From Myxococcota bacterium (GTDB taxonomy: Bacteria > Myxococcota > XYA12-FULL-58-9 > JALHOP01): DNA of 64,000 bases. This document shows, in pieces, positions 6,934-25,239 of this stretch; the first letter of the stretch is position 1; every line of letters starts with the position of its first letter. The stretch spans positions 1-64,000 of the forward strand of contig JBGGMJ010000105.1 in assembly GCA_041288095.1 (NCBI GenBank). Direction: 5' to 3'. Both the position numbers and the translations under genes were made by a program. Under the pieces are notes generated by a model. It was not told the DNA's origin. It saw nothing but the letters and a program-made list of their open reading frames with translations, and did no database searches.

Positions 6934-7950
6934 GTGCGCGCGTATGCGATCAGTGACTCCTTTGGCATCGACAACCTTCGCCTCGTCGAGCGTGATTCAC
7001 CGCGTCCCGGCAAGGGCGAGGTCGTCATGCAGATGCGCGCCTGCTCGCTGAACTACCGCGACCTGCGCATGGTACGCGGCGAGTACAACCCCAAACAGCC
7101 GTTGCCGCTGGTCCCTCTGTCCGACGGCGCGGGCGAAATCGTCGCCATCGGCGAGGGGGTAACGCGCGTGGAAGTCGGTGACCGCGTCACCACGTTGTTC
7201 TCGCCGCATCGTCAAGGCGGCCGCCCCACCCGCGCGACGATCAGCAAGAACCTCGGCGGTCCGCTCGATGGAGCCCTGCAAGAGCGCTTGCTGCTGCCCG
7301 AGACCGGCGTCGTGCCCATGCCCGCGCACTTGACCTTCGAGGAAGCGGCGACCCTCCCGTGTGCCGGCGTCACCGCTTGGAACGCGCTCGCCACCCAAGG
7401 CGACCTCACCAAGGGCGACACCGTCCTCACCATCGGCACCGGCGGCGTGTCGATCTTCGCCATCCAGATCGCAAAGCTCCTCGGCATGCGGGTCATCGCC
7501 ACGTCGCGCAGCGCCGCCAAGCTCGAGCGCGTCAAAGCCTTGGGGGCCGACTTCACCATCGACACCAGCGCCACGCCCGACTGGTCGAAGGAGGTCCGCA
7601 AGCTGGTCGGCAACGACGGCGTCGATCAGGTCATCGAAGTCGGTGGCGTCGGCACCCTCGAACAGTCCATTCGCTCTGTCCGCCCGGGCGGACAAATCAG
7701 CCTCATTGGGGTCCTGGCCGGCGTCGAGAAACCGCTGAACCTGACGCCCGTGCTCATGCAGAACATTCGCATCCAAGGCGTGTTCGTCGGCGATGCCACG
7801 GTGTCGGCCGACTTCGCGCGGGCCGTCGAGCAAGCACGGCTGCGGCCGGTGGTCGACCGTGTCTTCCCCGTCGACGCGATCCACGATGCTCTTCGCTTCA
7901 TGGAGAGCGGCGAGCACTTCGGCAAGGTGGCGCTGACCCTTTGGCAGTGA
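6934..7950 (+). CDS. NAD(P)-dependent medium-chain alcohol dehydrogenase / quinone reductase
   Basis: SLNYRD, PLSDGAGE, EAATLPCAGVTAWNAL, GTGGVS, HFGKV. Confidence 0.92.
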   Translation: MRAYAISDSFGIDNLRLVERDSPRPGKGEVVMQMRACSLNYRDLRMVRGEYNPKQPLPLVPLSDGAGEIVAIGEGVTRVEVGDRVTTLFSPHRQGGRPTRATISKNLGGPLDGALQERLLLPETGVVPMPAHLTFEEAATLPCAGVTAWNALATQGDLTKGDTVLTIGTGGVSIFAIQIAKLLGMRVIATSRSAAKLERVKALGADFTIDTSATPDWSKEVRKLVGNDGVDQVIEVGGVGTLEQSIRSVRPGGQISLIGVLAGVEKPLNLTPVLMQNIRIQGVFVGDATVSADFARAVEQARLRPVVDRVFPVDAIHDALRFMESGEHFGKVALTLWQ

Positions 7951-7986
7951 CGACGGTCGAGTCGTTCCGACCCTGTCATGTGACCC

Positions 7987-8035
7987 CCGTCACGCCGCCG
8001 CGTCAGAGCCGTCACGCCGTCAGATAAGCGCGTCA
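7987..8035 (+). repeat. Cluster of five CGTCA direct repeats upstream of the giant ORF
   Basis: CGTCA at 7988, 8001, 8010, 8018 and 8031; CCGTCACGCCG occurs twice. Confidence 0.5.
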
Positions 8036-8086
8036 GCCCGGGGGCTTAGGCCAGGGTACCATCGTCTACGGAGCGAGGTACCCACC

Positions 8087-11000
8087 ATGAGAAACGAAGG
8101 CGTCAATCTTTCCCGACTGCTCGTCGAAACCCAGCTCGAGCGCCAAGACGATTGGGAGACGCTGGCCCAGCGCAACATCGACCTGCAGCTGGCTCTCGAG
8201 GCCCAACGCCGCGCTGCCGCGCAAGCGCAGGCCGCCGCCGATGCTCAGGCGGCAAACGATGCTCAGCTCGAAGCCGCGCGTATCGCGGCAGCCGAGGCGG
8301 AGATTGTTCCCCAGGTCATGCTCCCCACCGACGATGAGGCGACCGACCAAGCCGTCTTGGTGTCGGGCACGACCGACGCCGTAACCGAGCCCGGGCCGTA
8401 TGCCCAGGAGCTCGAGACCCAGCTCGCCGGCCTGACGATCACCGAGGACCTCCAGGTGCCGGTCGACAACCTTCGCGCCGCGACCGCTGAAGCGGACGCA
8501 CTCATCGCCGAGGGCTATCACGAGCAGGGCACCGCGATGTACGCGGCGATTCAGTACGCGAGTGAGCCGATCGTCACGGCGCTGGTCGCGGCACAGGTCG
8601 CGCCCGTCACGGCGCAGGCCGCGCCCGCCTCGGCGCAGACCATTGAAAGCCAACCGGTCGCGCAAAAGGCCGCGCAGCAAACAGCGACGTCACCTCTCGA
8701 GCAAGCGCCCCTCGCGGCGCCGAACGACTACTTCACCGGCAGCTTCGATGCCCCCCCTCCGGGCGGCTGGTTCTGGGCTATCGGCGATGCCGGCCGCACC
8801 GGTCAGGATGGCGTCTATCAGTGGCTCTCCGAGGCCGTCACTGCACGCGCCCGGGCGAGCGAGCATGGCGCCTACCTGCTCGCGGGCAGCGATCAGGTGA
8901 CGAGCGTCGGCCAGCATCTCCGGGATGCCGCGGCCTATCCGGTCGGCTTCGAGTTCGAGGTCTACGGCGGCGAGGGCGAACACTACACCCAAACGCAAAC
9001 GCGCATGCTCTCGCGCGACGAGACCATCGCCGAGCTCCGCAATCGCGGAAACGACGACAGCGCCATCGCCACGTATCTCGGTGAGCACGAGCAGTACATG
9101 GTTCAAGCCAGCTACTTCTCGGGCGGCGAAGACGGCACCGTCGTGCCCGCGGTGTATGGGACGCGCGACGCGTACCTCAGCGCCATCGGCCTTCCGCTCG
9201 ACGTACCGATGGACCTGCAGATCGCGTTCAACTACTCGGGCGCGGGCAGCGGCGACGCATGGCTCGACGCCTCGCACGCGCGGATGAGCATGGCGGGGGG
9301 CGGTGTCGAGAGAGCTTACGTCGCCATCGTCGACGACAGGCTCGCCGCTGACTGGGCGCAAATCGGCGACATCGGCCCGATCAACGACGACGTCAACGAG
9401 ATGCTCGGCGATATCTACGGGCGCTACGGCGCGACGACGCCCGAGCAACAAGAGGCGGTTCGTAACGTTCTCTTCAAGTACGACGAACGCTTCGGCGTGC
9501 TCGCGAACCGCGAGTTCGTCGAGGCCGCGGTCGAGAAAAACAACGCGCGTCGCCAGGGCTTCTTCGAGGGCCCGGTTGGCCGCGCGATCCTCAGCGTCGC
9601 GGCGAGCTTCATCCCCGGCGTCGGACCCTACGTTTCGATGATGCTCAACGCCGGCTTCCAGCTGTCCGACGGCGCGTCATTCGGCCAAGTCATCGCCGGC
9701 GCCGCGGTGAGCTACTTCACCCAGCAGTACACCGCGGACTTCGGAAACTACGTCGCCGGGGCCTTCGGCGACAGCATCAGCCCGGCGGTCGCTGAGGTCA
9801 TCGCCGCCGGCGCCCGCAATCTCGGGAACACGGCGATCAACCAGCTCATGTCCGGCAACGGCCTCGATGGTGAGGGCCTACTGCTCGCGGCCGCGGCGGG
9901 TGGCTTCGGCAGCTTCATCACCAACTTCGTCGACGGATCCGACTTCGGTAAAGTGCTCGACGAACAGTTCGGTCGTGGTCGCGCCGGCGACATCATCGGA
10001 CGTTTGGGTGCTTCAGCGGTCGACGGCAAGCTCTCCGCCAGTGACTTCGTCGGTGCCTTCGCGGCCGGTCGCGCGGACCAGGTGACCACCGTCGAGGGCG
10101 CGGACGGCACGCACGTCTTCGTCAAGACCGATACCGGCATGATCACCCGCAACCCGGACGGCAGCATTACCCAGCTCGATGAGGGTGATGACGGCCAGGT
10201 CGTTGCCACCACCTATGACAGTGATGGCAATCGCATCGTTTCGGCGGACGCCTTCACCGGTGCGCTCGCGAATCCGGTATGGCGGACGGCGACGTTGAGT
10301 GATGCGCTGACTGACCAGCTCACCGGCGAGAGCTTGTTCACCGGGCTCGAGGACATCTTCGGCTTGGCGGCCGGCTCCGTGAGCTTCGACGGCTTCACCC
10401 CGGACTTCGACGGCACCTTGTCTCTGTTCGGCTCCGTGCTCGGCGGCGCCAGCCCCCTCGAGCTCGCCGCGCTCCAGGAGGGTGGCTACGGCCTCGACGC
10501 GACCATGACCTCGTTCGTGCCCGACGACGTCGCCGTCGATGCTCCGCCCCCGGATCTCACCTCTAAAACGTACACCAAGGATCAGAATGGTCTCGAGACT
10601 TGGCGCGATCCGGATACCGGCGCCATCATCAAACAGCGCGATGCCAATGGAGCGATGCTCGAGGTCGTCGGCGATCGGCGCGTCATCACCGATCCGCAAG
10701 GTAAGGTCGTCTCCGTGCAAGGCGGCACCCGAGGCGAGGCGCTTCGCCAAGCCCGCGACAGCGGCAGCGGCCTGGTCGAGTGGAACGGCAAGCTCTACAC
10801 CACGGTGACGGAGGAGGACCTCGTCCGCCAAAGCGGTCAGAGCGTCAAGGCGTTCCGTGAGTTCAAGGCGACCAAGGGAGGGACCTACGCGGACTTCCAA
10901 GCCGAGATCACCGCCAACAAGTGGGGCGTGTTGGCTCAGGGGGGCGTCGATACCAAGTACTGGCAGTCGCAAGGCTTCACGCCCGAGCTGGTAGCCGTCA

Positions 11001-12586
11001 CCTACGCCGTCAACGGTAACGACCATCGCCTGGCCACGATGAAGCCGAACGAAACCGTGGCCGTCGACAGTCTCGCGCTCAACATCGCCAACAACCTGGC
11101 AAACCTACCCGCGGGCTTCGGCGAGCTTTATCGAAGTGCCGTGAACGGCTTCACCGCCTTCGCCCAGAGCCAGGAGATCAACGGCCAGACCATGACCTTC
11201 ACTGAGCTCATGGGCGCGGGCGTGAACTACCTCTTGAACGCTGGACAGAGCGCCGCGAAGCGTCTGGTCGACAACACCGACAGCACCGGCGAGGCCGTGT
11301 TGGTCGCGGTCGGCGGCGGCTTTCAGGCCATCATCAATTCGTTCAAAGGCGGCGTCGAGGCGCTCGATAGCTTGGGCAAGCCTCTCACGCCACAGCAAGC
11401 CGCCGTGGAAACGCTCAAGTTGTTTGGCGGCATCGCGTCGGTGTTCGGAGTCACTGGGCTCGCGCGCGGCGCCGTCGCCGGCACGGCGGTGACGACCGAA
11501 GGCTTGAGCGCCGCGAGCAACGTCACGGTGCGGACGCTGGCCGACGCGGCCGGTCTGCTGCTGCCGGACAATCCTGGCTCCGTGGTGAAGCACATGGACT
11601 TCCTCAGCCCGGGCCCACAACCGACGGCGCTCGCCAACGTCGACGACGTCTCGGCGCGCATCGCCGCCGTCGACCTCGCCGTCGAGACCAAACATTTCTA
11701 CGACAGCTTCGACTCGGCGCGTGACATCGCCACCGTGCTCGTCGGCCCGTTGAGTGATTCCCTGGGGGTCGCGCGCGGCAGAGCCAGCGTTTACGACCTG
11801 GCACTGCGCGAGTCGCTGTTCGACTACCAAAACGTCGGTGGCACGGTGCCGAGGCTCAGCGATGGCACGTGGATCTTCCCCGTGGGCACGCGGCCAGACG
11901 GGCTCGAGTTCATCGGTTTCGATGCATTCGCGCCGAGCATCGTTCGTCACGAGGCGCAGCACGTGCTCGACTACGCCGCCGCGGCTCTCGACCCGGCGAG
12001 CCCGTATCTGCTGCGGATGGAGTGGCCGAATTCAGGAAGCTCGCTGTACAAGGGGTTCGCGTATACCGAGCTCAACGGATTCGGCATCACCGCCGAGGAG
12101 CTTTCGCGGTCGTACGTTTTCGCGATGGCCAACGGCGACGTCGCCGGCGCCGCCAACGCCTTGAAGGGTTATCAGTCCATCCTGGGCACCTATGACGGCC
12201 TGATGGGCCGCGTCGAAGAGGTGCTCGGCAACGCGGTGTCACAACCGTCGCGCTCGCTCATGGCGCAAACCATGACGGCGAGCCCCGCTGTCCCGAAGAA
12301 CTCTGGCTTCCAGGTCGTCGAGTTCCAGATCATCGGTCCCGAAGGCTTGCCGGTGAAGATGTCGGCGGAGGTCCAAGCAGGTCTGACGCCGGCGCAAATG
12401 AACGACGCGGTCACGGAGCAAATGATCTCGGGCCTGAATCAGCTCGATGCCTACGTCGACTTCCGCGCCGCGCGCGCGGCCGATCTCGCGGCGTTGAAGC
12501 AGCACTATCAGCAGCAAGTGGGGACGCCGAACACCGGCAACGGGGGTGGTAACACCGGCGGTCGCGGCGGCGGCCTCGACCCCTAG
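8087..12586 (+). CDS. Giant (1499 aa) hypothetical protein, polymorphic-toxin-like, with C-terminal HExxH metallopeptidase motif
   Basis: Long open frame with GAGG RBS. Ala/Gln-rich N-terminus, Gly/Ala hydrophobic helices, beta-repeat region, IVRHEAQHVLDY at about aa 1288. No classical signal peptide. Confidence 0.8.
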   Translation: MRNEGVNLSRLLVETQLERQDDWETLAQRNIDLQLALEAQRRAAAQAQAAADAQAANDAQLEAARIAAAEAEIVPQVMLPTDDEATDQAVLVSGTTDAVTEPGPYAQELETQLAGLTITEDLQVPVDNLRAATAEADALIAEGYHEQGTAMYAAIQYASEPIVTALVAAQVAPVTAQAAPASAQTIESQPVAQKAAQQTATSPLEQAPLAAPNDYFTGSFDAPPPGGWFWAIGDAGRTGQDGVYQWLSEAVTARARASEHGAYLLAGSDQVTSVGQHLRDAAAYPVGFEFEVYGGEGEHYTQTQTRMLSRDETIAELRNRGNDDSAIATYLGEHEQYMVQASYFSGGEDGTVVPAVYGTRDAYLSAIGLPLDVPMDLQIAFNYSGAGSGDAWLDASHARMSMAGGGVERAYVAIVDDRLAADWAQIGDIGPINDDVNEMLGDIYGRYGATTPEQQEAVRNVLFKYDERFGVLANREFVEAAVEKNNARRQGFFEGPVGRAILSVAASFIPGVGPYVSMMLNAGFQLSDGASFGQVIAGAAVSYFTQQYTADFGNYVAGAFGDSISPAVAEVIAAGARNLGNTAINQLMSGNGLDGEGLLLAAAAGGFGSFITNFVDGSDFGKVLDEQFGRGRAGDIIGRLGASAVDGKLSASDFVGAFAAGRADQVTTVEGADGTHVFVKTDTGMITRNPDGSITQLDEGDDGQVVATTYDSDGNRIVSADAFTGALANPVWRTATLSDALTDQLTGESLFTGLEDIFGLAAGSVSFDGFTPDFDGTLSLFGSVLGGASPLELAALQEGGYGLDATMTSFVPDDVAVDAPPPDLTSKTYTKDQNGLETWRDPDTGAIIKQRDANGAMLEVVGDRRVITDPQGKVVSVQGGTRGEALRQARDSGSGLVEWNGKLYTTVTEEDLVRQSGQSVKAFREFKATKGGTYADFQAEITANKWGVLAQGGVDTKYWQSQGFTPELVAVTYAVNGNDHRLATMKPNETVAVDSLALNIANNLANLPAGFGELYRSAVNGFTAFAQSQEINGQTMTFTELMGAGVNYLLNAGQSAAKRLVDNTDSTGEAVLVAVGGGFQAIINSFKGGVEALDSLGKPLTPQQAAVETLKLFGGIASVFGVTGLARGAVAGTAVTTEGLSAASNVTVRTLADAAGLLLPDNPGSVVKHMDFLSPGPQPTALANVDDVSARIAAVDLAVETKHFYDSFDSARDIATVLVGPLSDSLGVARGRASVYDLALRESLFDYQNVGGTVPRLSDGTWIFPVGTRPDGLEFIGFDAFAPSIVRHEAQHVLDYAAAALDPASPYLLRMEWPNSGSSLYKGFAYTELNGFGITAEELSRSYVFAMANGDVAGAANALKGYQSILGTYDGLMGRVEEVLGNAVSQPSRSLMAQTMTASPAVPKNSGFQVVEFQIIGPEGLPVKMSAEVQAGLTPAQMNDAVTEQMISGLNQLDAYVDFRAARAADLAALKQHYQQQVGTPNTGNGGGNTGGRGGGLDP

Positions 12587-12622
12587 GCGCTGGGGTGCGC
12601 CAAGGCGACTGCCGTGGAGGCG

Positions 12623-12648
12623 CAACCGCGACCGCGATTGCCCGATAA
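12623..12648 (+). promoter_or_regulatory. sigma28-like bipartite promoter CAAC-N15-CCGATAA
   Basis: GCGCAACCGCGACCGCGATTGCCCGATAA, followed by GAGGTG RBS and GTG 12677. The same motif recurs at three other intergenic sites. Confidence 0.6.
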
Positions 12649-12676
12649 AGGGTTCGATTCAGTCGAGGTGTTACGC

Positions 12677-13510
12677 GTGTCAATCGAAGTCTCGCAATTC
12701 AAGCTCGACCCCGCGGCCATCGTGCCGCCCGGAGAACCAGAAGCGCAGGCTCCTCGACCCTCGACCGCGCTCGCCCCGAGGCAAGAAACCGTGCCGGCGC
12801 TGCCCCCCTCGACGGTGCGCACCCTTCTCGTAGCCGATTACGCCTTGCCGGGCGCCGCAGGCTCGGCCTGGCTCCTGAGCCTCGGCCTCGCGTTCAGCCA
12901 GAGCGCTTCGTTGCCTCTTCTCGCGGCCCTGACCGCCGCCGGGATCGGCTCGGGGCTCGCCATCGCGCGTAGCCTCATCATGCAAAAAACAGCCGCGCCC
13001 GTGGCGACCGACCCAGCAATGGCGCAGACGCACTACAACTATGCGATCGACCTGGCCAACACGGCGAAGCTGCGCCTCGAGCATGCTTACAAGTACGTGT
13101 GTTTGTCGGACGCCGTGCCGGGCGACCAGGCCGAGCGCCTCTTGAAGGACCTCCCTCGCGGCCAGGAGTGGGGCATCCTCCGTGGTCCATTCGGAAACGC
13201 GCGCACCAACCCGGTGACGTTCCAGGCCGTCCTCAAGGAGATCGGCCTGCGTGAGTGGCGCCGCTACCGCTTCGTACCCTACGACGTCGAGCTCGTCATC
13301 GCCGGGCTCAAGAAGCTCGGGCCCGTCACTCCCGAGCAGCGACTGCGCATCCAGGCGAACGCCCTCGACATCATGAGCAAGTACCACAACCATCACGAGA
13401 CATCAGAAGCGCTGCAGGCTGATCTCGTCGCCGCGGTCCGCGAGCTCGCGCGCCGTGCACCAAGCGCGCCTCACCTGGGAGACTTGAAGCCGGTGCAAGC
13501 GAGCACGTAG
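12677..13510 (+). CDS. Hypothetical protein with Pro-rich N-terminus and a hydrophobic hairpin
   Basis: ORF 12614-13510; GTG 12677 has an RBS. Two hydrophobic segments, then a helical domain. Confidence 0.7.
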   Translation: MSIEVSQFKLDPAAIVPPGEPEAQAPRPSTALAPRQETVPALPPSTVRTLLVADYALPGAAGSAWLLSLGLAFSQSASLPLLAALTAAGIGSGLAIARSLIMQKTAAPVATDPAMAQTHYNYAIDLANTAKLRLEHAYKYVCLSDAVPGDQAERLLKDLPRGQEWGILRGPFGNARTNPVTFQAVLKEIGLREWRRYRFVPYDVELVIAGLKKLGPVTPEQRLRIQANALDIMSKYHNHHETSEALQADLVAAVRELARRAPSAPHLGDLKPVQAST

Positions 13511-13521
13511 GGTTGCGACGC

Positions 13522-14637
13522 ATGCCGCCGCCAATCATCTTTCTCGACCTACCGGCCGTGGCGCGCTGGCGCGATGCAAGTCACTTGGAGCTGCTCGACT
13601 TCGTGACGGGCACCCGGCTCGTCGCCGACGGCGAGGTTGCACACGATCTCTGGCACTGCTTCGAGCGCGGTGAACAGAGTGAGCGCGTGCGTGCCCTGAG
13701 CCTGGCTCAACCCTTGATCAGCGCCCTGCTCGCGGATCAGCGTCGCCAGGCCTGGAGCCCGCGCGCATCGCTCGAGCTTGGTGGCTTCGACACTCTGTTC
13801 ATCGAGCTAACCGGCCGCTGCAACGAGCGCTGCCTCCATTGTTATGCGGACTCGAGCCCCGAGGTGACCACCGCATTGGATCGCGCCACCTGCGAGACGC
13901 TCCTCGACGACGCCGTGAGCCTGAGATTCCGACGCGTCCAGCTCACCGGCGGTGACCCACTCTTGTGCTCGTTCTTGCCCGAGCTCGTCGATGCCGCGGA
14001 TCCGAGCCTTACCGTCGAGATCTACACCAATGGTCTCGCCTTGAAGGACGAGCTGCTCGCGAAGCTATCGCGCCGTCGTCCGGCGTTCGCGTTCTCGTTC
14101 TATTCGCACGATGCCGCGCACCATGACGCCATCACCCGCACCCCCGGGAGCCAAGCACGAACGCGGGCCGCGATCGCCCGTGCTCTCGCGGCCGGCCACG
14201 CGGTGAGGGTCTCGATCATCGTCATGCGTGAGAACGCAGACGACGTGGCCGCCACCATCGCCATGCTCGAGGCCATGGGAGTGACCGACGTCAGCGTCGC
14301 GGGCACACACGCGGCGGGGCGTGGTGACTACTGGGATGGGAAGGTCGAGCGAGCATCATCCGCCCACTTACCGCGCCCGCCCGACAACGATTCCGATCGC
14401 CCGCGAGGCAGGCTTTGCGTCACCGCCGCTGGAGAGGTAACGCCGTGTATCTTCAATCGCAAGGACGTCTTGGGCCGCGTCCCCGGAGCGCGGCTCGTCG
14501 ACATCGTCGCAGCACCCGACCTCGATGCCCTACCGACGCGAGACGACGTGATCATGCTCGACGCACTCAAGCGCTCGTTGCAATGCACTGAGTGCCAGGC
14601 CGCTGCCTTCATGCTGCGGATTGGGGGGAAGGGATGA
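13522..14637 (+). CDS. Radical SAM protein with degenerate SPASM/twitch domain (putative RiPP maturase)
   Basis: IELTGRCNERCLHC (CxxxCxxC), LTGGDPLL, IYTNG, HDAITR.PGS, GEVTPC, CTEC. Confidence 0.9.
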   Translation: MPPPIIFLDLPAVARWRDASHLELLDFVTGTRLVADGEVAHDLWHCFERGEQSERVRALSLAQPLISALLADQRRQAWSPRASLELGGFDTLFIELTGRCNERCLHCYADSSPEVTTALDRATCETLLDDAVSLRFRRVQLTGGDPLLCSFLPELVDAADPSLTVEIYTNGLALKDELLAKLSRRRPAFAFSFYSHDAAHHDAITRTPGSQARTRAAIARALAAGHAVRVSIIVMRENADDVAATIAMLEAMGVTDVSVAGTHAAGRGDYWDGKVERASSAHLPRPPDNDSDRPRGRLCVTAAGEVTPCIFNRKDVLGRVPGARLVDIVAAPDLDALPTRDDVIMLDALKRSLQCTECQAAAFMLRIGGKG

Positions 14638-14912
14638 CAGCCCGTGCGCCCCTACGACACGCCACGGTGACCGACCGGGAGCTGCCCGATGGCGAGCGGG
14701 TGTTGCTCACGCCCGATGGTAGTGGGGTGCTCGTGCTCAATCCGCTGGGGAGCGTGATCTGGACGCTCTGTGACGGCGCACACGACGTGGAAGGCATGGC
14801 ACGCATCATCGGTGAGCGTTTCCCCGAGGTCGCGCCCGAGCAAATTGCACGCGATGTGAACGCCGTCCTCAAGCAGCTCGCGGAGGCGAAGCTCCTCGAC
14901 GATGTCAGCTAG
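14634..14912 (+). CDS. PqqD-family RiPP recognition element (RRE)
   Basis: VLNPLGSVIWTLCDG...IARDVNAVLKQLAEAKLL. ATGA overlap with the radical SAM stop codon. Confidence 0.9.
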   Translation: MTARAPLRHATVTDRELPDGERVLLTPDGSGVLVLNPLGSVIWTLCDGAHDVEGMARIIGERFPEVAPEQIARDVNAVLKQLAEAKLLDDVS

Positions 14913-15714
14913 CTTTCGTCGGTGCTTTCGCGCGCTCGACCTGACGGTGAGCGTGGCCTCCGACGTCCCCACGGTCGCCGCAACCCTCGACATGCTCACG
15001 AGCTGTTACGAGCTCGTACCCCGCGCCGAGGACTACGCTTACACGATCGACCAGGCCTCGTCGTACACGGCGCGTGTAAACGACGTGGTGCTCTACGAGA
15101 GCGCAAGCGAGCACGAAGTCGTGAGCGCCATCGAGCTGGATATCTATGACAGGGTGATGCGCGCGGCGCAGGGACGCTGGCTCGTGCACGCCGCCACTTT
15201 GGCGCACGACGACCGTGGGCTCGTGCTCGTCGGCGCGTCGGGCGCGGGCAAGAGCACGATGGCGCTGGCGCTCGTCGCGAAAGGGGCGAGCTATGTCACC
15301 GATGAGATGACCCTCATCGACGAACGTGGGGTCTGCCGCGGCCTTGGGCGCCCACTCACATTGGAGAGCCGCCCCGATGCGATGTTCACGCAAGGCATGC
15401 GGGTAGCGGTGGCGGGCTCGGGAGCTGCTCAGAGCGTTTGGGTCGCGCCGCCCCCCGAGCGACGCAGCGTGACGGCATTGGAACGCCACACTTGGGTGCA
15501 CCTCAGTCAAGGCCCCGGCGAGCTGCGTCGTCTCACCAGCGGCGAGGCGTTGGTGGCGTTCTGGGGACAGAGCCTCACCACGGATGCACGAGCGCTCGCG
15601 ATAGCGACCGACGTCGTGAGCGGCATGCCTGCCTACGCGGTGCGCGGTCAGTCGATCGCCGAGAGCGCCGAGCTCCTGGAGAGCCTGCTCGCAGGCCCGG
15701 GCGGCTCGAATTGA
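14902..15714 (+). CDS. HPr-kinase-related P-loop kinase
   Basis: LVHAA, Walker A GASGAGKST and YVTDE. Overlaps the PqqD stop. Confidence 0.85.
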   Translation: MSASFRRCFRALDLTVSVASDVPTVAATLDMLTSCYELVPRAEDYAYTIDQASSYTARVNDVVLYESASEHEVVSAIELDIYDRVMRAAQGRWLVHAATLAHDDRGLVLVGASGAGKSTMALALVAKGASYVTDEMTLIDERGVCRGLGRPLTLESRPDAMFTQGMRVAVAGSGAAQSVWVAPPPERRSVTALERHTWVHLSQGPGELRRLTSGEALVAFWGQSLTTDARALAIATDVVSGMPAYAVRGQSIAESAELLESLLAGPGGSN

Positions 15715-15757
15715 CGGCAACACGGCCATCGCCTAGTCTTTTCCTCAGGCGGTAGTC

Positions 15758-15976
15758 ATGGCGAAAGACCTCGAGGACAGCCAGAGCGAGTCCGAGCTGC
15801 TAGCGCGACGGGCCCTCCTCAAGCTGGGTGTCTATGTTGCGCCAGCGATCGTCGGCACCTTGATGCTGAGCAGCAAGCCCGTGGCGGCACAGGCGTCGTG
15901 TGGTCCCCAAGCGTGCAAGCCCGCCGCCAGCTGCGGTCCGACGGACGGCACCCCCTGCGCGCCGAATCGTCGCTAA
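15758..15976 (+). CDS. Putative RiPP precursor peptide (72 aa)
   Basis: Acidic N-terminus, RRALLK, YVAPAI, hydrophobic stretch, VAAQA, then Cys-rich core SCGPQACKPAASCGPTDGTPCAPNRR. Lies directly after the maturase genes. Confidence 0.8.
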   Translation: MAKDLEDSQSESELLARRALLKLGVYVAPAIVGTLMLSSKPVAAQASCGPQACKPAASCGPTDGTPCAPNRR

Positions 15977-16857
15977 AGCACCGCGTCGACGCTGGTCGAT
16001 GAGGTCTTTCGCAGTCGGGCCGCGACCGCCGAAGCCAAGAAGCGCGGCAGGGCCGACGTGCGCGTCGACAGCAGAGGCAACAATGCGAGCAGCTCGACGC
16101 GGATGTTGGCCACGTGCCCCGTGGTCCAGACGCGGCGCTCGCCACCGAGATTGAAGAGGCGGCGCAGGAGGTCGACACGCAGACGCTCCGCCGTCGCAAG
16201 TGGAATCTCGGGCACCTTGCCGCCGCGGCGCCGCAACATGTCAGCGAGCACGTGGAGGGCAATCGTAAGGTGTGCGTCGGCGCAGGTGCGGATCACCGCT
16301 TGCCAGTCGACTGCTTGCCGCGCGAGCAGACGAAAGACGTCGCCCAGATGGCGATCGTCGAGCGTGAAGCGAGCGCCGGCATAGTGGACGACGGCGTGGA
16401 CCACTTGGTCTTCGGCGCATAGCCCCATGATCGGTCCGTCGACGCTGTCCCAGGCGTGTGCCCGCTCGAGGAGACGCTCGTCGTCCAGCGGAAACCACGG
16501 GCGCGGACCAAGCGCGCGATGCAGGTCGACGTCGATGAGGTCCGCGGGAGCGCGGAACGGCAGGCCGCGCAGCGCATGATGGGCGAGCAGGCGGTCACCA
16601 CGAAAGCCGTGGGCGCGCAGCTCAGCGGCGAAGGCGTCGAATGCCCGAGGCTCGACGAGCACGTCGATATCGACCCCCCAGCGCTCGCCCAGTCCGCTAT
16701 AGAGTACAGGGTCGGCCCACGCGGCCTTCAGATAGACGACCTTGGTGCCGACACGCGCACCGATGGCATCGAGGATGCCGCGCTGTCGCTTCACCATGAG
16801 GCTGCGGCCGAGACCCGCGGTGGCGCGCAAGCCTGCGTCCATGGGTCTTTTGTACAC
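15973..16857 (-). CDS. Uncharacterised nucleotidyltransferase (NTP_transf_5-like)
   Basis: VVYLKAAW...LY...ER..VDIDVLV, VDLH, HAVVH, VDW. Start GTG 16857 overlaps the upstream stop (TAGTG); ATG 16842 is an alternative. Confidence 0.85.
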   Translation of the reverse strand: MYKRPMDAGLRATAGLGRSLMVKRQRGILDAIGARVGTKVVYLKAAWADPVLYSGLGERWGVDIDVLVEPRAFDAFAAELRAHGFRGDRLLAHHALRGLPFRAPADLIDVDLHRALGPRPWFPLDDERLLERAHAWDSVDGPIMGLCAEDQVVHAVVHYAGARFTLDDRHLGDVFRLLARQAVDWQAVIRTCADAHLTIALHVLADMLRRRGGKVPEIPLATAERLRVDLLRRLFNLGGERRVWTTGHVANIRVELLALLPLLSTRTSALPRFLASAVAARLRKTSSTSVDAVL

Positions 16858-18431
16858 TAGTCCTTGCGCGTCGTCTTCGGACGGCTGGCCTCGCCGACGC
16901 GCCGGAGGCGATCAGCGAAGGCTTGGCGCAGCTCGGGTTGGAATCGCGGGTCGGCGATCGCGATCAGCGCTTCGGCGCGCTCCAGGGTGGACTTGCCCTC
17001 GAGCTTGGCGACGCCGTGCTCGGTGACGACGTACTGAAGGTCGTGCATCGAGGTCGTGACCACGTCATCGGTGCCAAGGTACGGGACGATGGACGAGATC
17101 ACCTGGGGTTGACCATCGGCGCCCTTGATGGTGCGCGTCGAGGCGAGGGCGAGGATCGCGGCGCCTCCGGGAGAGCGCGAGGCTCCACGCATGAAGTCGA
17201 CTTGGCCGCCGACGCCGCTGTACCAGCTGCCGTTGATCATTTGGGCGTTGACCTGGCCGTTCAGATCGACACGCAGCGCCGTGTTGATGGCAATGAGCTT
17301 GTCGATCTTACCGAGCGCGACCGGGTCGTTGCATGCGTCGATGGGCAGGGCGACGAGCTGCGGGTTGCCGTCCATCCACTGCAGCAGCTCCGCCGAGCCG
17401 CCGGCGAAGCTGAACTCGATGGGACCCGCGACCGCGCCCGCTTTAGCGAGCAACATGACGCCGTCGGCGATCATCTCCGAGTGAATGTGAAACCCCTTGC
17501 GGCCTTGCTCCGCGAGCCGCGCGGCAACCGCGTTGGGTAACCCCCCGATGCCAAACTGCAGGGTCGCGCCGTCGGGCACCAAGCCGACGATGTTCGACGC
17601 GATGGCGACTTCTTCGGCGCTCGCCGGCGGCGCCGGCACGGTGATGACCGGCGCTTCCGAGCGCACGATATGATCGAGCTCACTGACATGGACGCGGCAC
17701 GCGCCACCGACCCGAGGCACGCTCGGGCTCATCTCGGCGATGACCGTTTTAGCGTGCTCGATGGCCACCGGCTCGAGGACCGCGCTGGTGCCGATGCTGA
17801 CATAACCTTCGGCGTCGGGGGGGCTGACGCGCAGGAGGACCTTGTCGATCGGGAGCTCGCCGCCGCGAATCAATCCGGGCAGTCGGTGGAAGAAGCTGGG
17901 GATGAACGAGCCGCGCCCGGTGGCGATGGCGGCACGCGAGCTGTTGTCGACGAAGATGGCCTCGGGGACGATCTTGCCCTCGCCTTCGTAGAGCTTGGGA
18001 TCGACCAAGACGGCCGTCCCGAAGAGCTTCAATGGTCGCTTGGCGTCGAGCTCGCCCGGCAGTCGCGCCCTCGCCGCCAGCGCCCCGAGGATGGTCAGAG
18101 GCGCCATGTGACCAACCGGCACGAGGACCCGCTCGCCAGGCTGTAACAGCGCCGCGGCTTGCTCGGCGGTGATCGTTCGTTCCGCAAGCACACGCTCGGC
18201 GCTCGGCAGAGGCGCCGCGTTGGCCAGCGCGTCGATCTTGCCACGCAGCGCCGTGACTTCCTTGGGATCGGTGAGCGCCCGCGCGTCGGCGCTCTTCGCG
18301 AGAAAGGCGTCGACTTCGGCGACGCTCGTCAGTCGGTCAGGACTCCCGGTCGCTTCGTCCGCGCGCGCGAGCAGCCGCTCATCGGAGGTGTTGGCTCGAG
18401 CGACTCGGGTGATGGCGACGGACTTGTTCAC
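16857..18431 (-). CDS. Acetyl-CoA hydrolase / 4-hydroxybutyrate CoA-transferase family, with N-terminal extension
   Basis: VSPPDAEGYVSIG, DGATLQFGIGGLP, HSEM, SGVGGQVDFMRGA, VVTEHGVAKL. GTG 18431 has a GGAGG RBS (ORF track start is 18452). Confidence 0.92.
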   Translation of the reverse strand: MNKSVAITRVARANTSDERLLARADEATGSPDRLTSVAEVDAFLAKSADARALTDPKEVTALRGKIDALANAAPLPSAERVLAERTITAEQAAALLQPGERVLVPVGHMAPLTILGALAARARLPGELDAKRPLKLFGTAVLVDPKLYEGEGKIVPEAIFVDNSSRAAIATGRGSFIPSFFHRLPGLIRGGELPIDKVLLRVSPPDAEGYVSIGTSAVLEPVAIEHAKTVIAEMSPSVPRVGGACRVHVSELDHIVRSEAPVITVPAPPASAEEVAIASNIVGLVPDGATLQFGIGGLPNAVAARLAEQGRKGFHIHSEMIADGVMLLAKAGAVAGPIEFSFAGGSAELLQWMDGNPQLVALPIDACNDPVALGKIDKLIAINTALRVDLNGQVNAQMINGSWYSGVGGQVDFMRGASRSPGGAAILALASTRTIKGADGQPQVISSIVPYLGTDDVVTTSMHDLQYVVTEHGVAKLEGKSTLERAEALIAIADPRFQPELRQAFADRLRRVGEASRPKTTRKD

Positions 18432-18467
18432 GAGGCTTGGCCCTCCGGGCACGGTGATAGCCGGAGG

Positions 18468-18493
18468 TCATCGGCCAGCGCGGCGCACAGTTG
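18468..18493 (-). promoter_or_regulatory. sigma28-like promoter CAAC-N15-CCGATGA
   Basis: Minus strand CAACTGTGCGCCGCGCTGGCCGATGA in the intergenic gap before the CoA-transferase. Confidence 0.5.
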
Positions 18494-18524
18494 TGCGGGC
18501 GGCTCATGCCGGGGCGTCAGTCCT

Positions 18525-21094: not shown

Positions 21095-23197
21095 ATGAAG
21101 AAGACAACGTCGAGCTTGTCCTGGGTATTGCTCGCATCGCTATCCGTCGCCTGCGCCGGCGAGCGCACCGAAGGTGAAACCGTCGCCGCCGCGCCGGAAG
21201 CCTCGGAAGTTTCGAGCAACGCGGCGCAAGCACCCGCAACCACGAGCGTCTCGCTCATTAGCCGCGAAGTCTTGTTCGGCAACCCAGAGCGCACGGCTCC
21301 GCAGCTGTCGCCGGACGGTAAGCGCATCGCGTTCCTGGCTCCAGTCAACAACGTCCTCAACGTTTGGGTCGGTCCCGCGGACGACTTCGCGCAAGCCAAG
21401 CCCGTGACGAGCGACACGAAGCGCGGCATCCGCGACTACTTCTGGACGTACACGAACAATCACATCGTCTATCTCCAGGACAAGGATGGTGACGAGAACT
21501 GGCGCGCCTATGCCATCGACCTCGTCAAAGGCGGCCAGCGTGATCTGACGCCGTTCGACGGGGTGCGCGCCCAGATCGCCCACGTCACGCACAAGAAGCC
21601 GAAGGAGATCTTGATCGGTCTCAACAAGCGCGACCCCAAGGCGCACGACCTTTATCGCGTCGACATCACCACCGGCACCATGAAGCTCGTCGCCGAGAAC
21701 AAGGACAACCTCGCCGACTACATCGCCGACGACGACCTCAACGTTCGCATCGCCAGCAAGATCAATGACGACGGGTCGAGCGAGATCCTCGAGCCCGACG
21801 CCAAGAAGCGCGGCACCTGGAAGAGCCTGCTGCACGTGCCCTTCGACGACACCATGGGCACTTCGCCGGTCGACTTCACCAAAGACGGCAAGGCCATGTA
21901 CCTGCTCGACAGCCGCGACCGCGACACCGCCGCGCTCTACACCTACGACTTCAAGACCAAGGAAAAGAAGCTCGTCGCCGAGAGCAGCGCGGCCGACGTC
22001 GGCGGCATCATGATGCATCCCACCGAGCACACGGTGCAGGCCGTGACGTTCGACCCGGGTCGCATCACCTGGAAGATCCTCGATCCGAAGATCGAAGCCG
22101 ACTTCGCCTCGTGGAAGACCACCGACGACGGCGACCTCGTGAGCGCGCGCTCGTCGCTCGACCAGTCGAAGTGGCTGCTCACGTTCGTGCACGATCAAGG
22201 ACCGACCAAGTACTACGCGTACGATCGCGCCACGAAAAACGCGAAGCTCCTGTTCGTGAACCAACCGAAGCTCGAGGGCGCGCCGCTCTCGGCGATGCAA
22301 GCGGTGACCATCCGCTCGCGCGACAACCTCGATCTGCCGAGCTACCTGACGCTACCCATGGACGCGGTCGCGTTGCAGGCCACCAAGCCGGCGAAGCCTT
22401 TGCCGATGGTGCTCTTGGTGCACGGTGGTCCGTGGGCGCGCGACACCTGGGGCTTCAACCGCTCGCACCAGTGGCTCGCCAATCGCGGCTACGCGGTGCT
22501 CAGCGTCAACTACCGCGGCTCGACCGGTTTCGGAAAAGCCTTCGTCAACGCCAGCAAGATGCAGTGGGCCGGCACCATGCACGATGATCTCCTCGACGCG
22601 GTGGACTGGGCGGTCAAGGAAGGCATCGCCGACCCCAAACGCGTCGCCATCATGGGCGGCAGCTACGGCGGCTACGCGACCCTCGTGGGTCTCACCTTCA
22701 CGCCGGACGTCTTCGCATGCGGCGTCGACATCGTCGGGCCCTCGAACCTCGCGACCTTGCTGGCGACGATCCCCCCGTACTGGGCGCCCGCTAAAGCGTT
22801 GTTCACCAGCCGCGTCGGCGACATTTCGACCGAAGAGGGCAAGGCGAAGCTCGCCGAGCGCTCGCCGCTGACCAAGGCGGACAAGATCGTGAAGCCCCTA
22901 CTCATCGGTCAGGGCGCCAACGACCCGCGCGTCAAGCAAGCGGAGTCGGACCAGATCGTGACGGCGATGAACGCCAAGAACATCCCGGTGACCTATGTGG
23001 TGTTCGGCGACGAGGGCCACGGCTTCAAGCGGCCGGAGAACAGCATGGCGTTCAACGCGGTCGCCGAGGCGTTCCTCGCCAAGCACCTGGGAGGGCGGTT
23101 CGAGCCGGTCGGTGACGACTTCAGCGGCTCGTCCATCGACATCAAGAACGGCGCCGAGCTCATCCCGGGCCTGCCGAAACCGGTGGCCGCCCGATGA
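21095..23197 (+). CDS. S9 family dipeptidyl/acylaminoacyl peptidase, lipoprotein
   Basis: VHGGPW, NYRGSTGFG, nucleophile GGSYGG, GANDPRV, DEGHGF. Confidence 0.95.
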   Translation: MKKTTSSLSWVLLASLSVACAGERTEGETVAAAPEASEVSSNAAQAPATTSVSLISREVLFGNPERTAPQLSPDGKRIAFLAPVNNVLNVWVGPADDFAQAKPVTSDTKRGIRDYFWTYTNNHIVYLQDKDGDENWRAYAIDLVKGGQRDLTPFDGVRAQIAHVTHKKPKEILIGLNKRDPKAHDLYRVDITTGTMKLVAENKDNLADYIADDDLNVRIASKINDDGSSEILEPDAKKRGTWKSLLHVPFDDTMGTSPVDFTKDGKAMYLLDSRDRDTAALYTYDFKTKEKKLVAESSAADVGGIMMHPTEHTVQAVTFDPGRITWKILDPKIEADFASWKTTDDGDLVSARSSLDQSKWLLTFVHDQGPTKYYAYDRATKNAKLLFVNQPKLEGAPLSAMQAVTIRSRDNLDLPSYLTLPMDAVALQATKPAKPLPMVLLVHGGPWARDTWGFNRSHQWLANRGYAVLSVNYRGSTGFGKAFVNASKMQWAGTMHDDLLDAVDWAVKEGIADPKRVAIMGGSYGGYATLVGLTFTPDVFACGVDIVGPSNLATLLATIPPYWAPAKALFTSRVGDISTEEGKAKLAERSPLTKADKIVKPLLIGQGANDPRVKQAESDQIVTAMNAKNIPVTYVVFGDEGHGFKRPENSMAFNAVAEAFLAKHLGGRFEPVGDDFSGSSIDIKNGAELIPGLPKPVAAR

Positions 23198-25239
23198 AAA
23201 TCAGGCTTTCGCTGTGCTGGTTGCTGCTCGTCGCCGCGTGCGGCAAGTCCCCGGATGCGACGACCGTCAAAACGGACGGCAGCCCGCGTAGCATCACGGC
23301 GGAGGCCTCCATCGCCCCGGCGAAGGCGGAGCTAGCGATCATCGCACGGCGCGACTTGTTCAGCTCGCCCGATCACATCGAGCCGCGCTTGTCCCCCGAC
23401 GGGAAGATGCTCGCTTGGCTCGCGCCCGTGGGGGGGATTCTCAATGTTTGGGTCGCTCCGGCGACGAACGTTGAAGCCGCCAAAGCAATCACCAACGACG
23501 GCAAGCGCGGGATTCGTGTCTATCACTGGACCTACGACGGCCGGCACATCATCTACGAGCAGGACAAGGACGGCGACGAGAACTGGCACCTCTACGTGCT
23601 CGACATCGTCACCGGCCAAACGCGCGACGCCACCGCTTTCCAAGACGTAAAAGCAAGCGTGGTGGCGCTGTCACCGCTCAAGAAATCGAGCGCCGTGGTG
23701 GCGCTGAACCGTCGCGATCCGGAGTGGGAGGATCTCTTCGAGCTCGACCTCGCGCAAGCGACCTTGAAGCCCTTGTTCGAGAACCGCGCCAAGCTCACCG
23801 ACATGCGCGTGAGTGACGACTACAAGGTGATGGTCGGTGACCACCAGAACGATGACGGCGGCAAAGACCTGGTCTTGGTCGAGCTGGGCAAGAAGGCCGG
23901 TAAGCCCAAGAGCATTGCCACCGTCCGCTTTGGCGATGAGGTCACCACCGCCGCCATCGGCTTCTCGAGCGATGCCAAAACGCTCTACATGATCGACAGC
24001 CGCGACCGGGACACCGCCGCGTTGATGGCGCTCGATCTCAAGACATTGAAGTCGCGCATGCTCGCCGATGACGCCAAAGCGGACGTGTCGGACGTCATCA
24101 TGCATCCGGTGACGCACGCGCCGCAGGTCGTAACGTTCGAGTACGACACGGTGAGCACGGTGCTGCTCGACACCGACGTCGCCGCCGACGTCACCGCGCT
24201 ACGCGCCGTCGAGCCGGGCAACATCACCTGGACCTCGACGCTCGACAACCAACACTGGATCGTCACCTTCGCCGGCACTGACACGCCGTATCGCTTCTAC
24301 ACCTACGATCGCAAAACCCGCGAAGCGCGCTTCTTGTTCTCCGCGCGCAGCATCCTCGAGAAGGCGCAGCTGGCTCACCGTCGCGCCGTGGTCATCCCTG
24401 CCCGCGATGGCGTACCACTCGTGTCGTATCTCACTTTGCCGTTCGCGACGCCGCGCGAAGACACCCAGCTTCCCGAGCGTCCTCTGCCGATGGTGCTCTA
24501 CGTGCACGGCGGCCCATGGGCGCGCGACTCCGAAGGCTACGACGGTGTGGCGCAGTGGCTCGCGAACCGCGGCTACGCGGTGCTGCAAGTGAACTACCGG
24601 GGCTCGACCGGCTTCGGGAAAAAGTTCGTGAACCTGGCGAACCGCGGCTGGGGCGGCAGCATGCACGAGGACTTGGTCGACGCCGTGAAGTGGGCGGTGG
24701 CTCAAGGCATCACCAAGGACGACACCGTCGGCATCTTCGGCGGCAGCTACGGTGGCTACGCGACGCTCACCGGCATGACCAAGACGCCGACCCTGTTCCG
24801 TTGCGGCGTCGACATCGTCGGCCCATCGAACCTCGAGACCTTCATCGCGGCCTTCCCTCCGTACTGGAAGCCGTACCTCTCGATGGTCTACGAGCGCATC
24901 GGCGACCCACGTAACGACGACGGCAAGGCCTTCCTGCGCGAGCGCTCACCACTCACGCACATCGACGCCATCGCGCGCCCGTTGCTCATCGCTCAGGGCG
25001 CGAACGACCCACGCGTGAAGCGCGCCGAGTCCGAGCAAATCGTCGCGGCGATGCGCGCCAAGAAGATCCCGGTCACCTACGCCGTCTTCCCGGACGAAGG
25101 TCACGGCTTCGCGCGTCCGGCGAATCGCTTGGCGTTCTTCGCTTTAGCGGAGGAGTTCTTGGCGAAGCACCTGGGTGGCCGGGTCGAGCCGTTGGGCACC
25201 GATGGCAACGGCTCGTCGATGCAGGTGGCGAACGACTAA
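23194..25239 (+). CDS. S9 family peptidase, tandem paralogue
   Basis: Same catalytic motifs (GGSYGG, NDPRV, DEGHGF); lipobox VAAC; ATGA overlap. Confidence 0.95.
   Translation: MKIRLSLCWLLLVAACGKSPDATTVKTDGSPRSITAEASIAPAKAELAIIARRDLFSSPDHIEPRLSPDGKMLAWLAPVGGILNVWVAPATNVEAAKAITNDGKRGIRVYHWTYDGRHIIYEQDKDGDENWHLYVLDIVTGQTRDATAFQDVKASVVALSPLKKSSAVVALNRRDPEWEDLFELDLAQATLKPLFENRAKLTDMRVSDDYKVMVGDHQNDDGGKDLVLVELGKKAGKPKSIATVRFGDEVTTAAIGFSSDAKTLYMIDSRDRDTAALMALDLKTLKSRMLADDAKADVSDVIMHPVTHAPQVVTFEYDTVSTVLLDTDVAADVTALRAVEPGNITWTSTLDNQHWIVTFAGTDTPYRFYTYDRKTREARFLFSARSILEKAQLAHRRAVVIPARDGVPLVSYLTLPFATPREDTQLPERPLPMVLYVHGGPWARDSEGYDGVAQWLANRGYAVLQVNYRGSTGFGKKFVNLANRGWGGSMHEDLVDAVKWAVAQGITKDDTVGIFGGSYGGYATLTGMTKTPTLFRCGVDIVGPSNLETFIAAFPPYWKPYLSMVYERIGDPRNDDGKAFLRERSPLTHIDAIARPLLIAQGANDPRVKRAESEQIVAAMRAKKIPVTYAVFPDEGHGFARPANRLAFFALAEEFLAKHLGGRVEPLGTDGNGSSMQVAND

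Follow-up and report, generated by a model that had tools for sequence, protein, structure and literature searches.

In the 64,000-nucleotide stretch of Myxococcota DNA analysed here (contig JBGGMJ010000105.1, positions 1 to 64,000; hereafter the window), five genes at 13522..16857 form a cassette that belongs to a real, conserved and, as far as searched, uncharacterised family of ribosomally synthesised, post-translationally modified peptides (RiPPs). The cassette encodes a radical S-adenosylmethionine (SAM) maturase, a discrete RiPP recognition element (RRE), an HPrK-like kinase, a precursor peptide with repeated Cys-x-Pro (CxP) units and a nucleotidyltransferase-fold protein. It resembles the linear polyphosphorylated peptide (LPP) system at the leader, the RRE and the kinase, and SkfB at the radical SAM step. 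The window proteins were scanned with Pfam and NCBIfam profiles, and the following open reading frames (ORFs) make up the cassette:

13522..14637, +, radical SAM maturase, 371 residues, with the motif CNERCLHC (PF04055, 57 bits, above cut-off)
14634..14912, +, discrete PqqD/RRE protein, 92 residues (PF05402, 60 bits, above cut-off)
14902..15714, +, HPrK-like peptide kinase, 270 residues, with the motifs GASGAGKST and TDE (PF07475, 27 bits, and TIGR04352, 51 bits, both below cut-off)
15758..15976, +, precursor peptide, 72 residues, without a Pfam or NCBIfam family
15973..16857, -, convergent NTP_transf_5 (PF14907) nucleotidyltransferase-fold protein (71 bits, above cut-off)

The kinase and precursor genes are separated by 43 nt, and the stop codons of the precursor and PF14907 genes overlap by 4 nt. 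These five ORFs, their motifs, overlaps and gap had been proposed by a first-pass annotation, and all were recovered at their positions by the ORF check and the profile scans.

The following maturation route is proposed. The RRE would bind the leader of the precursor, the radical SAM enzyme would cross-link each CxP Cys as a thioether, and the kinase would phosphorylate the Ser before the first CxP. As the complex model described below suggests, the RRE may hide a twin-Arg export signal until modification is complete, after which the finished peptide would be exported via the twin-arginine translocation (Tat) pathway and cut by a host signal peptidase. Gene content, conservation and motifs are observed, and from them we infer the chemistry and the export; the whole five-gene mechanism is given an even chance. 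If true, a new reaction of radical SAM enzymes would be added, acting on a three-residue motif that makes hardly any demands on the surrounding sequence (useful for peptide stapling), and the maturation of RiPPs would be tied to quality control by Tat.

Conservation of the gene set

A homologue search with the radical SAM protein yielded 451 relatives at E <= 0.001 among 8000 candidates, and the best 120 of these share at least 42% identity and are mostly full length. Starting from an alignment of 46 radical SAM proteins, 321 places were confirmed in species genomes and at least 477 in metagenomes. The 160 loci analysed comprise 80 places of each kind; they were not dereplicated, so related loci do not count as independent. 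Of these, 68 form a full-flank subset with at least 2.5 kb upstream and at least 4.5 kb downstream. The record titles of the related loci are mostly those of Myxococcota and Zetaproteobacteria, and the cassette is widespread in uncultured myxobacteria and iron-oxidising Zetaproteobacteria.

With iterated profiles, the RRE was found in 139, the kinase in 134, the precursor in 140 and the nucleotidyltransferase in 84 of the 160 loci. In the full-flank subset, these numbers are 66, 67, 67 and 45, respectively, and 44 loci contain all five genes. The first-pass annotation had considered that homologous loci might lack a similar peptide; the precursor adjoins the radical SAM gene in 140/160 and 67/68 loci, and the linkage is therefore not due to chance. 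It mostly lies directly upstream of that gene (142 of 152 precursor ORFs), the window arrangement with the precursor after the kinase being present in four loci. Two or three precursors are found in 10 loci. Each locus has a single radical SAM gene of this type. Other neighbour clusters each reach at most 27 of the 160 loci. No cyclase, leader peptidase or ABC exporter was detected among 24 of the top 30 neighbour-cluster representatives scanned, and no lasso cyclase or B2 peptidase among 11 window proteins, in agreement with the earlier statement that the locus lacks a lasso cyclase and a leader peptidase.

The precursor peptide and the kinase

The window precursor consists of an acidic n-region, Arg17-Arg18, the motif Tyr26-x-x-Pro29 within a hydrophobic stretch, Lys40, a cleavage region of small residues (42-46), Ser47 and four CxP units. 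All four Cys (48, 53, 59 and 67) are part of a CxP unit, as expected for the Cys-rich CxP-repeat peptide recognised at first pass. The family was described from 136 distinct precursors, of which 105 have short cores, and CxP is present in every one of the 136. In the short cores, 497 of 539 Cys are followed by Pro in this way, compared with a mean of 101 and a maximum of 125 in 500 shuffles. Pro is found at +2 from Cys in 497 cases, at +1 in 51 and at +3 in 13, and the Cys are mostly spaced by 5, 6 or 7 residues. The peptide is very probably the substrate of the cassette enzymes. An Atlas search with the peptide gave unnamed clusters and weak leads only.

Odd and even numbers of Cys are equally common in the short cores (52 each), indicating that these Cys are not simply paired. 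In the long class from Zetaproteobacteria, with one conserved CCPC or CGPC motif, 21 of 22 precursors, counted among 30 listed long cores, have 11, 13 or 15 Cys. Read from this parity pattern, one Cys per CxP would be consumed by the enzyme and the remaining Cys would be free to pair after export. The long precursors (among others those of L059, L062, L066, L071, L094 and L169) carry 11-15 Cys and a single conserved CxP motif, which is preceded by a Ser at a distance of six residues.

In 102 of 136 precursors, the residue in front of the first CxP is Ser, compared with 37 of 416 cases for later CxPs. Counted from the Tyr of YxxP, Ser or Thr is located at +19 to +21 in 80/107 precursors, and it occupies the predicted core position 3 or 4 in 45/66. 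In the window peptide, Ser47 is core position 3 if cleavage takes place after Ala44 and position 1 if it takes place after Ala46. The homologue P0137 (67% identical) keeps the Ser that matches Ser47 and drops the second Ser. A C-terminal Ser is found in 6/136 precursors, and the window peptide ends in Arg.

The kinase has His96, the Walker A residue Lys117 and the acidic pair Asp134-Glu135. His and Lys are present in 114/114 kinases, and the acidic pair consists of Asp or Glu (86 and 28, respectively) followed by Glu or Asp (99 and 15). In the LPP study, the residue phosphorylated by LppK is Ser3 of an AQS core, which lies at Tyr+18 (PMC13381572). The target of the cassette kinase is probably the Ser before the first CxP, Ser47 in the window, which corresponds to the LppK position and not to a C-terminal Ser. 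Two observations weigh against this assignment: the long class has no Ser adjacent to CxP, and the window kinase has His-Lys-Asp-Glu instead of the His-Lys-Asp-Asp of the lasso kinases.

Leader, RRE and export

The leader contains a conserved Arg pair. Positions -9 and -8 from the anchor Tyr are Arg in 93% and 97% of the 136 precursors, followed by x-(Leu/Phe)-Leu-(Lys/Arg). The pair RR is present in 130, RRx(F/L/V)(L/M/I) in 127 and RRx(F/L)L(K/R) in 96 of the 136, and a KR variant also occurs. In the YxxP anchor, which was also used to anchor the alignment, the first residue is Tyr in 93% and Trp in 6%, and Pro is found in 100%. The n-region is acidic (median charge -3). Cleavage-type sites comprise a strict AxA in 86 precursors, Gly or Ala followed by an early Cys in 35 and a relaxed site in 10, leaving five precursors with none; Lys or Arg is located near AxA in 64 of the 86. 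An RRxFLK-like motif, a hydrophobic stretch and an AxA site are consensus features of Tat signals. No peptidase or exporter is conserved in the cassette, and a Tat-like signal would best explain the missing peptidase. On balance, the leader appears to be a Tat export signal that is cleaved by the host signal peptidase. TatC is present in the genome of the window and in 5/5 other genomes tested.

The RRE profile is closest to TbiB1 and also matches LppB. Its only near-invariant residues, Asn36 (99%) and Asp74 (96%), align with Asn33 and Asp70 of LppB; in the crystal structure, these two residues anchor the Pro and Tyr of YxxP (PMC13381572). A model of the RRE-leader complex scored 0.64, compared with 0.20 for the best control, with a predicted local distance difference test value (pLDDT) of at least 71 for the partner and at least 93% of the contacts common to the runs; the pass mark used is reached by 116 of 157 solved pairs and 2 of 215 mismatched pairs. 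The pass may also stem from likeness to RRE-leader pairs that have already been solved. The modelled interface comprises leader residues 15-23 and 26-37, so that the twin-Arg helix (15-20) lies under the RRE along with YxxP (26-31). This predicted contact with the twin-Arg helix would fit a masking of the export signal, and it would equally explain the conservation of the helix without Tat.

The latter leads to another explanation, in which the leader is only a handle for the RRE, the Arg helix is kept for this contact, and an unlinked protease and exporter replace Tat and signal peptidase. Besides the modelled packing of residues 15-20 on the RRE, several findings point in this direction or count against a Tat signal. 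The Tat profiles match weakly (TIGR02811 in 20/68 and TIGR01409 in 8/68 at E <= 1, and 5/68 in a second scan), and neither model matches the window peptide. Pro occurs once or twice in the hydrophobic region, the sites with an early Cys differ from canonical lipoboxes, TatC is common (11/14 control genomes), and a gene for a major facilitator superfamily (MFS) transporter adjoins 24/160 loci, all of the Zetaproteobacteria type. Against a simple handle stand RRx(F/L)L(K/R) in 96/136 precursors together with a KR variant and an acidic n-region, as well as AxA, which has a basic residue close by, and the two other cleavage-type motifs that can take its place; moreover, no peptidase was seen among the 24 neighbour-cluster representatives scanned. 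The handle explanation is regarded as improbable, and the Tat signal is preferred.

In its most extended form, the proposal describes a Tat-routed RiPP class. Here, the RRE would be an export proofreader that masks the Arg pair until every CxP is stapled, possibly from Cys to Pro, and until the N-terminal Ser is capped by the kinase together with an exchangeable nucleotidyltransferase. The modified peptide would end up in the periplasm or anchored to lipid, or would serve as a one-staple tag on small proteins rich in disulfides. This extended form is considered rather unlikely.

The nucleotidyltransferase and the sister genomes

The nucleotidyltransferase is the loosest cassette member and is missing from 23/68 full-flank loci. 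In the 84 loci where it occurs, seven position and strand classes can be distinguished: among others, 41 copies lie upstream in divergent orientation, 21 lie downstream and are convergent, separated by a gap, and 15 are co-directional and downstream. Its presence across these classes argues for a functional tie to the cassette. Asp63, Asp65 and His113 are invariant, and the window protein has Ala45 where 99% of the cassette relatives have Gly. No relative with a solved structure was found for this protein. Whether the nucleotidyltransferase decorates the phosphoserine with a nucleoside monophosphate or a sugar, as a portable and often unlinked partner, is evenly poised. LppN was without activity in its test (PMC13381572), which speaks against such a role. 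The cassette would offer a compact test case for the role of PF14907 on phosphorylated peptides, a question left unsettled by the LPP study.

The window copy has a history of its own. It is the only above-cut-off PF14907 copy of its genome and is only 14-27% identical to the cassette copies. Three sister genomes (G001-G003; 97, 94 and 84% complete) each have an unlinked ortholog beside tRNA genes, with 57-72% identity and a clade support of 1.0, and neither the CxP enzyme nor its precursor was detected in these genomes. Each carries a different operon of RRE, radical SAM and HPrK-like kinase genes followed by a gene for a Peptidase_C25 protein of 900-1000 residues (L187:2018-7844, L188:7402-12795 and L189:6101-11739). 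With the CxP profile, no small precursor was detected at these operons. This operon type was not found in the genome of the window (90% complete). The nucleotidyltransferase looks like a genus-resident ortholog that was recruited to the cassette as a portable kinase partner, and this module swap within the genus suggests that HPrK-like peptide kinases have in it a partner of general use.

The same orthologs, the low identity to cassette copies and the presence of PF14907 in 18/22 genomes of the order also fit a bystander, with a working cassette of four genes in the window genome. Such a bystander agrees less well with a relative in 84/160 loci in seven arrangements, with an only copy that overlaps the precursor gene, and with the other RRE-radical SAM-kinase module that each sister genome holds and that may be served in trans. 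In addition, 10/10 tested genomes, from 23 loci without an adjacent copy, contain PF14907 elsewhere, a result to be read against the high base rate of 18/22. We consider a bystander improbable and retain the recruited partner. Of the first-pass view of this protein as a RiPP tailoring member, the association (45/68 loci) has held, and its independent history qualifies it.

The radical SAM enzyme

The CxxxCxxC motif of the radical SAM enzyme is located at Cys100, Cys104 and Cys107. In the structure model (residues 3-371, pLDDT 93), the barrel is preceded by three strands and three helices. This N-terminal domain is predicted to be RRE-like, against which it must be noted that a profile comparison with the RRE alignment gave no match. 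Among 137 full-length relatives, the C-terminal Cys309 is present in 137, Cys355 and Cys358 each in 135 and Cys299 in 70, with the spacing C309-x45-C355-x2-C358. These conserved C-terminal Cys are too few for two clusters and form a reduced, Twitch-like set. The first-pass assignment to the radical SAM-SPASM enzymes stands for the radical SAM part and not for a full SPASM domain, whose profile scores 17 bits where 21.5 are required.

By sequence, Foldseek and VIA-align, the enzyme is closest to SkfB (Z 24.8, root-mean-square deviation 6.7, 295 residues aligned). The next VIA-align matches are Viperin, SuiB and BlsE at Z 21.6-22.2 and EpeE at 19.3. The three conserved C-terminal Cys resemble the CX33CXC open-site cluster of SkfB (PMC6231123). 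At the six catalytic-site positions used to profile group 1 sactisynthases (PMC10288494), the window enzyme has Y108/T142/Y168/S192/I310/F311, compared with Y/T/I/S/K/L in StsB and Y/T/F/S/Q/L in SkfB, so that positions 1, 2 and 4 are close to both, although Thr and Ser at these positions lack specificity. It is fairly likely that the enzyme forms thioethers on the CxP Cys. The Pro at +2 is tentatively considered as the thioether acceptor, being the only invariant partner.

Several features count against thioether formation: site position 5 differs from both StsB and SkfB, T142 and S192 are shared with the non-thioether enzyme BlsE in the alignment, and a Cys in front of the hairpin is lacking. 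C299 occurs in 70/137 relatives. Other chemistry, such as epimerisation, Pro oxidation or a C-C bond, would leave Cys free for metal or extracellular pairing. In its favour, Viperin, SuiB, BlsE and EpeE follow SkfB among the matches, the site profile matches that of StsB in part, and the fold does not fix function (PMC6231123). The fixed Cys-Pro spacing, the Cys parity patterns and the three-Cys auxiliary site are better explained by thioethers, and other chemistry is distinctly improbable.

Relation to known systems

The closest characterised system is LPP (lppAKBSDN from Paenibacillus alginolyticus; PMC13381572). Both systems have a discrete YxxP-binding RRE with Asn and Asp anchors, an HprK-like kinase and an NTP transferase, no lasso cyclase, a Ser about 18-21 residues after the Tyr (LppA S3 at Tyr+18) and signal-peptidase-type cleavage. 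The LPP cluster includes an SpI-like peptidase and an MsbA-like exporter, neither of which was found in the window proteins or the scanned neighbour representatives, whereas it has neither a radical SAM enzyme nor a CxP core, and its leader differs from the Tat-like one of the cassette. With the LPP leader consensus YxxPxVLxHQxIxFETxxS, the cassette leaders agree only in YxxP, in the hydrophobic residues behind it and in the late Ser.

The sactipeptide systems SkfA/SkfB and StsA/StsB/StsC (PMC6231123 and PMC10288494) share an RRE-assisted, Twitch-type radical SAM enzyme, a Cys-rich precursor and Tyr, Thr and Ser at site positions 1, 2 and 4. The cassette enzyme is about 20% identical to theirs and reaches 57 of the 625 bits of the StsB cut-off. 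These systems make hairpin Cys-to-Gly or Cys-to-Met links and have no kinase or nucleotidyltransferase, in contrast to the repeated CxP units of the cassette.

The first-pass annotation had drawn parallels with the lasso peptides and SynChlorMet. The lasso peptides paeninodin (PadeK) and pseudomycoidin (PsmK/PsmN) (PMC9266682) indeed share a YxxP leader, an RRE as a discrete protein, an HPrK-like kinase and a nucleotidyltransferase-like partner, yet they differ in their cyclase and B2 peptidase, in their C-terminal Ser and in the acidic pair of the kinase. The shared enzyme set stands, with LPP being the closer parallel. SynChlorMet (TIGR04248-04251) and HPr-rel-A (TIGR04352) also combine radical SAM, PqqD and HPrK-like genes. 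To our knowledge, both are profile families without a characterised product. All SynChlorMet models score far below cut-off (ScmC 16/125, ScmD 37/100, ScmE 49/400 and ScmF 65/400 bits), and the cassette has one radical SAM gene instead of two. The window kinase also stays below the cut-off of the HPr-rel-A model (HprK-related kinase A; 51/200 bits). Overall, none of the five cassette proteins reaches the cut-off of any NCBIfam model. Finally, CefA (Cys-every-fifth) and the Cys-Xaa-Xaa-Xaa repeat targets share Cys-periodic precursors, from which the cassette differs by the Pro fixed at +2; the CefA model NF038108 does not match the window peptide and reaches 9.4 of 30 bits in one of 24 homologues.

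Defining features of lasso peptides, LPP, SynChlorMet and CefA are lacking in the cassette, which leaves the earlier proposal of an uncharacterised RiPP family in place. A literature search on the gene combination, CxP and Tat-led RiPPs gave nothing relevant, most subscription journals being outside its range. It is very improbable that the kinase and nucleotidyltransferase instead activate a small molecule that is ligated to a peptide scaffold, without direct phosphorylation of Ser. In favour of this are the fosfazinomycin precedent (FzmF/FzmK/FzmU, where a precursor with YxxP occurs together with an RRE and a nucleotidyl transferase; PMC13622209) and a weak FomB match (E 0.08); against it stand the lack of conserved small-molecule pathway genes, the single kinase and the agreement of the Ser position with LppA S3.

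Neighbouring genes

A stretch of 10.6 kb (bases about 7949-18524), which includes the cassette, two upstream ORFs and an acetyl-CoA hydrolase gene, does not occur at the syntenic position in G002, and its two flanks adjoin each other there. Individual parts match at separate locations in G001-G003, and no repeats mark the ends of the stretch. The first upstream ORF (8087-12586, +) encodes an Ala/Gly/Asp-rich protein of 1499 residues without a Pfam or NCBIfam family, which may be a polymorphic secreted protein and in part matches G001, at 72-77%. The second (12614-13510, +) encodes 298 residues with a predicted hydrophobic hairpin and ends 11 nt before the start of the radical SAM gene. It has no Pfam or NCBIfam family and no relative among the 160 loci. 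No GC shift and no promoter-like site were found at the locus, terminators were at chance level, and no tRNA gene was found within the window.

Two tandem genes for S9 prolyl oligopeptidases (21095-23197 and 23194-25239, +) were considered as cassette members and rejected, as both genes keep their syntenic place in G001-G003, in which no cassette was detected. Both proteins (21095-25239) have lipoprotein-like N-termini. In related loci, a DUF7151 repeat protein gene is located directly upstream of the precursor in 13 cases (e.g., L029:6702-7484, on the opposite strand in this representative). A Wzz/tyrosine-kinase capsule gene lies next to the cassette in 16 loci (e.g., L096:6084-8267), which echoes the polysaccharide context reported for LPP.

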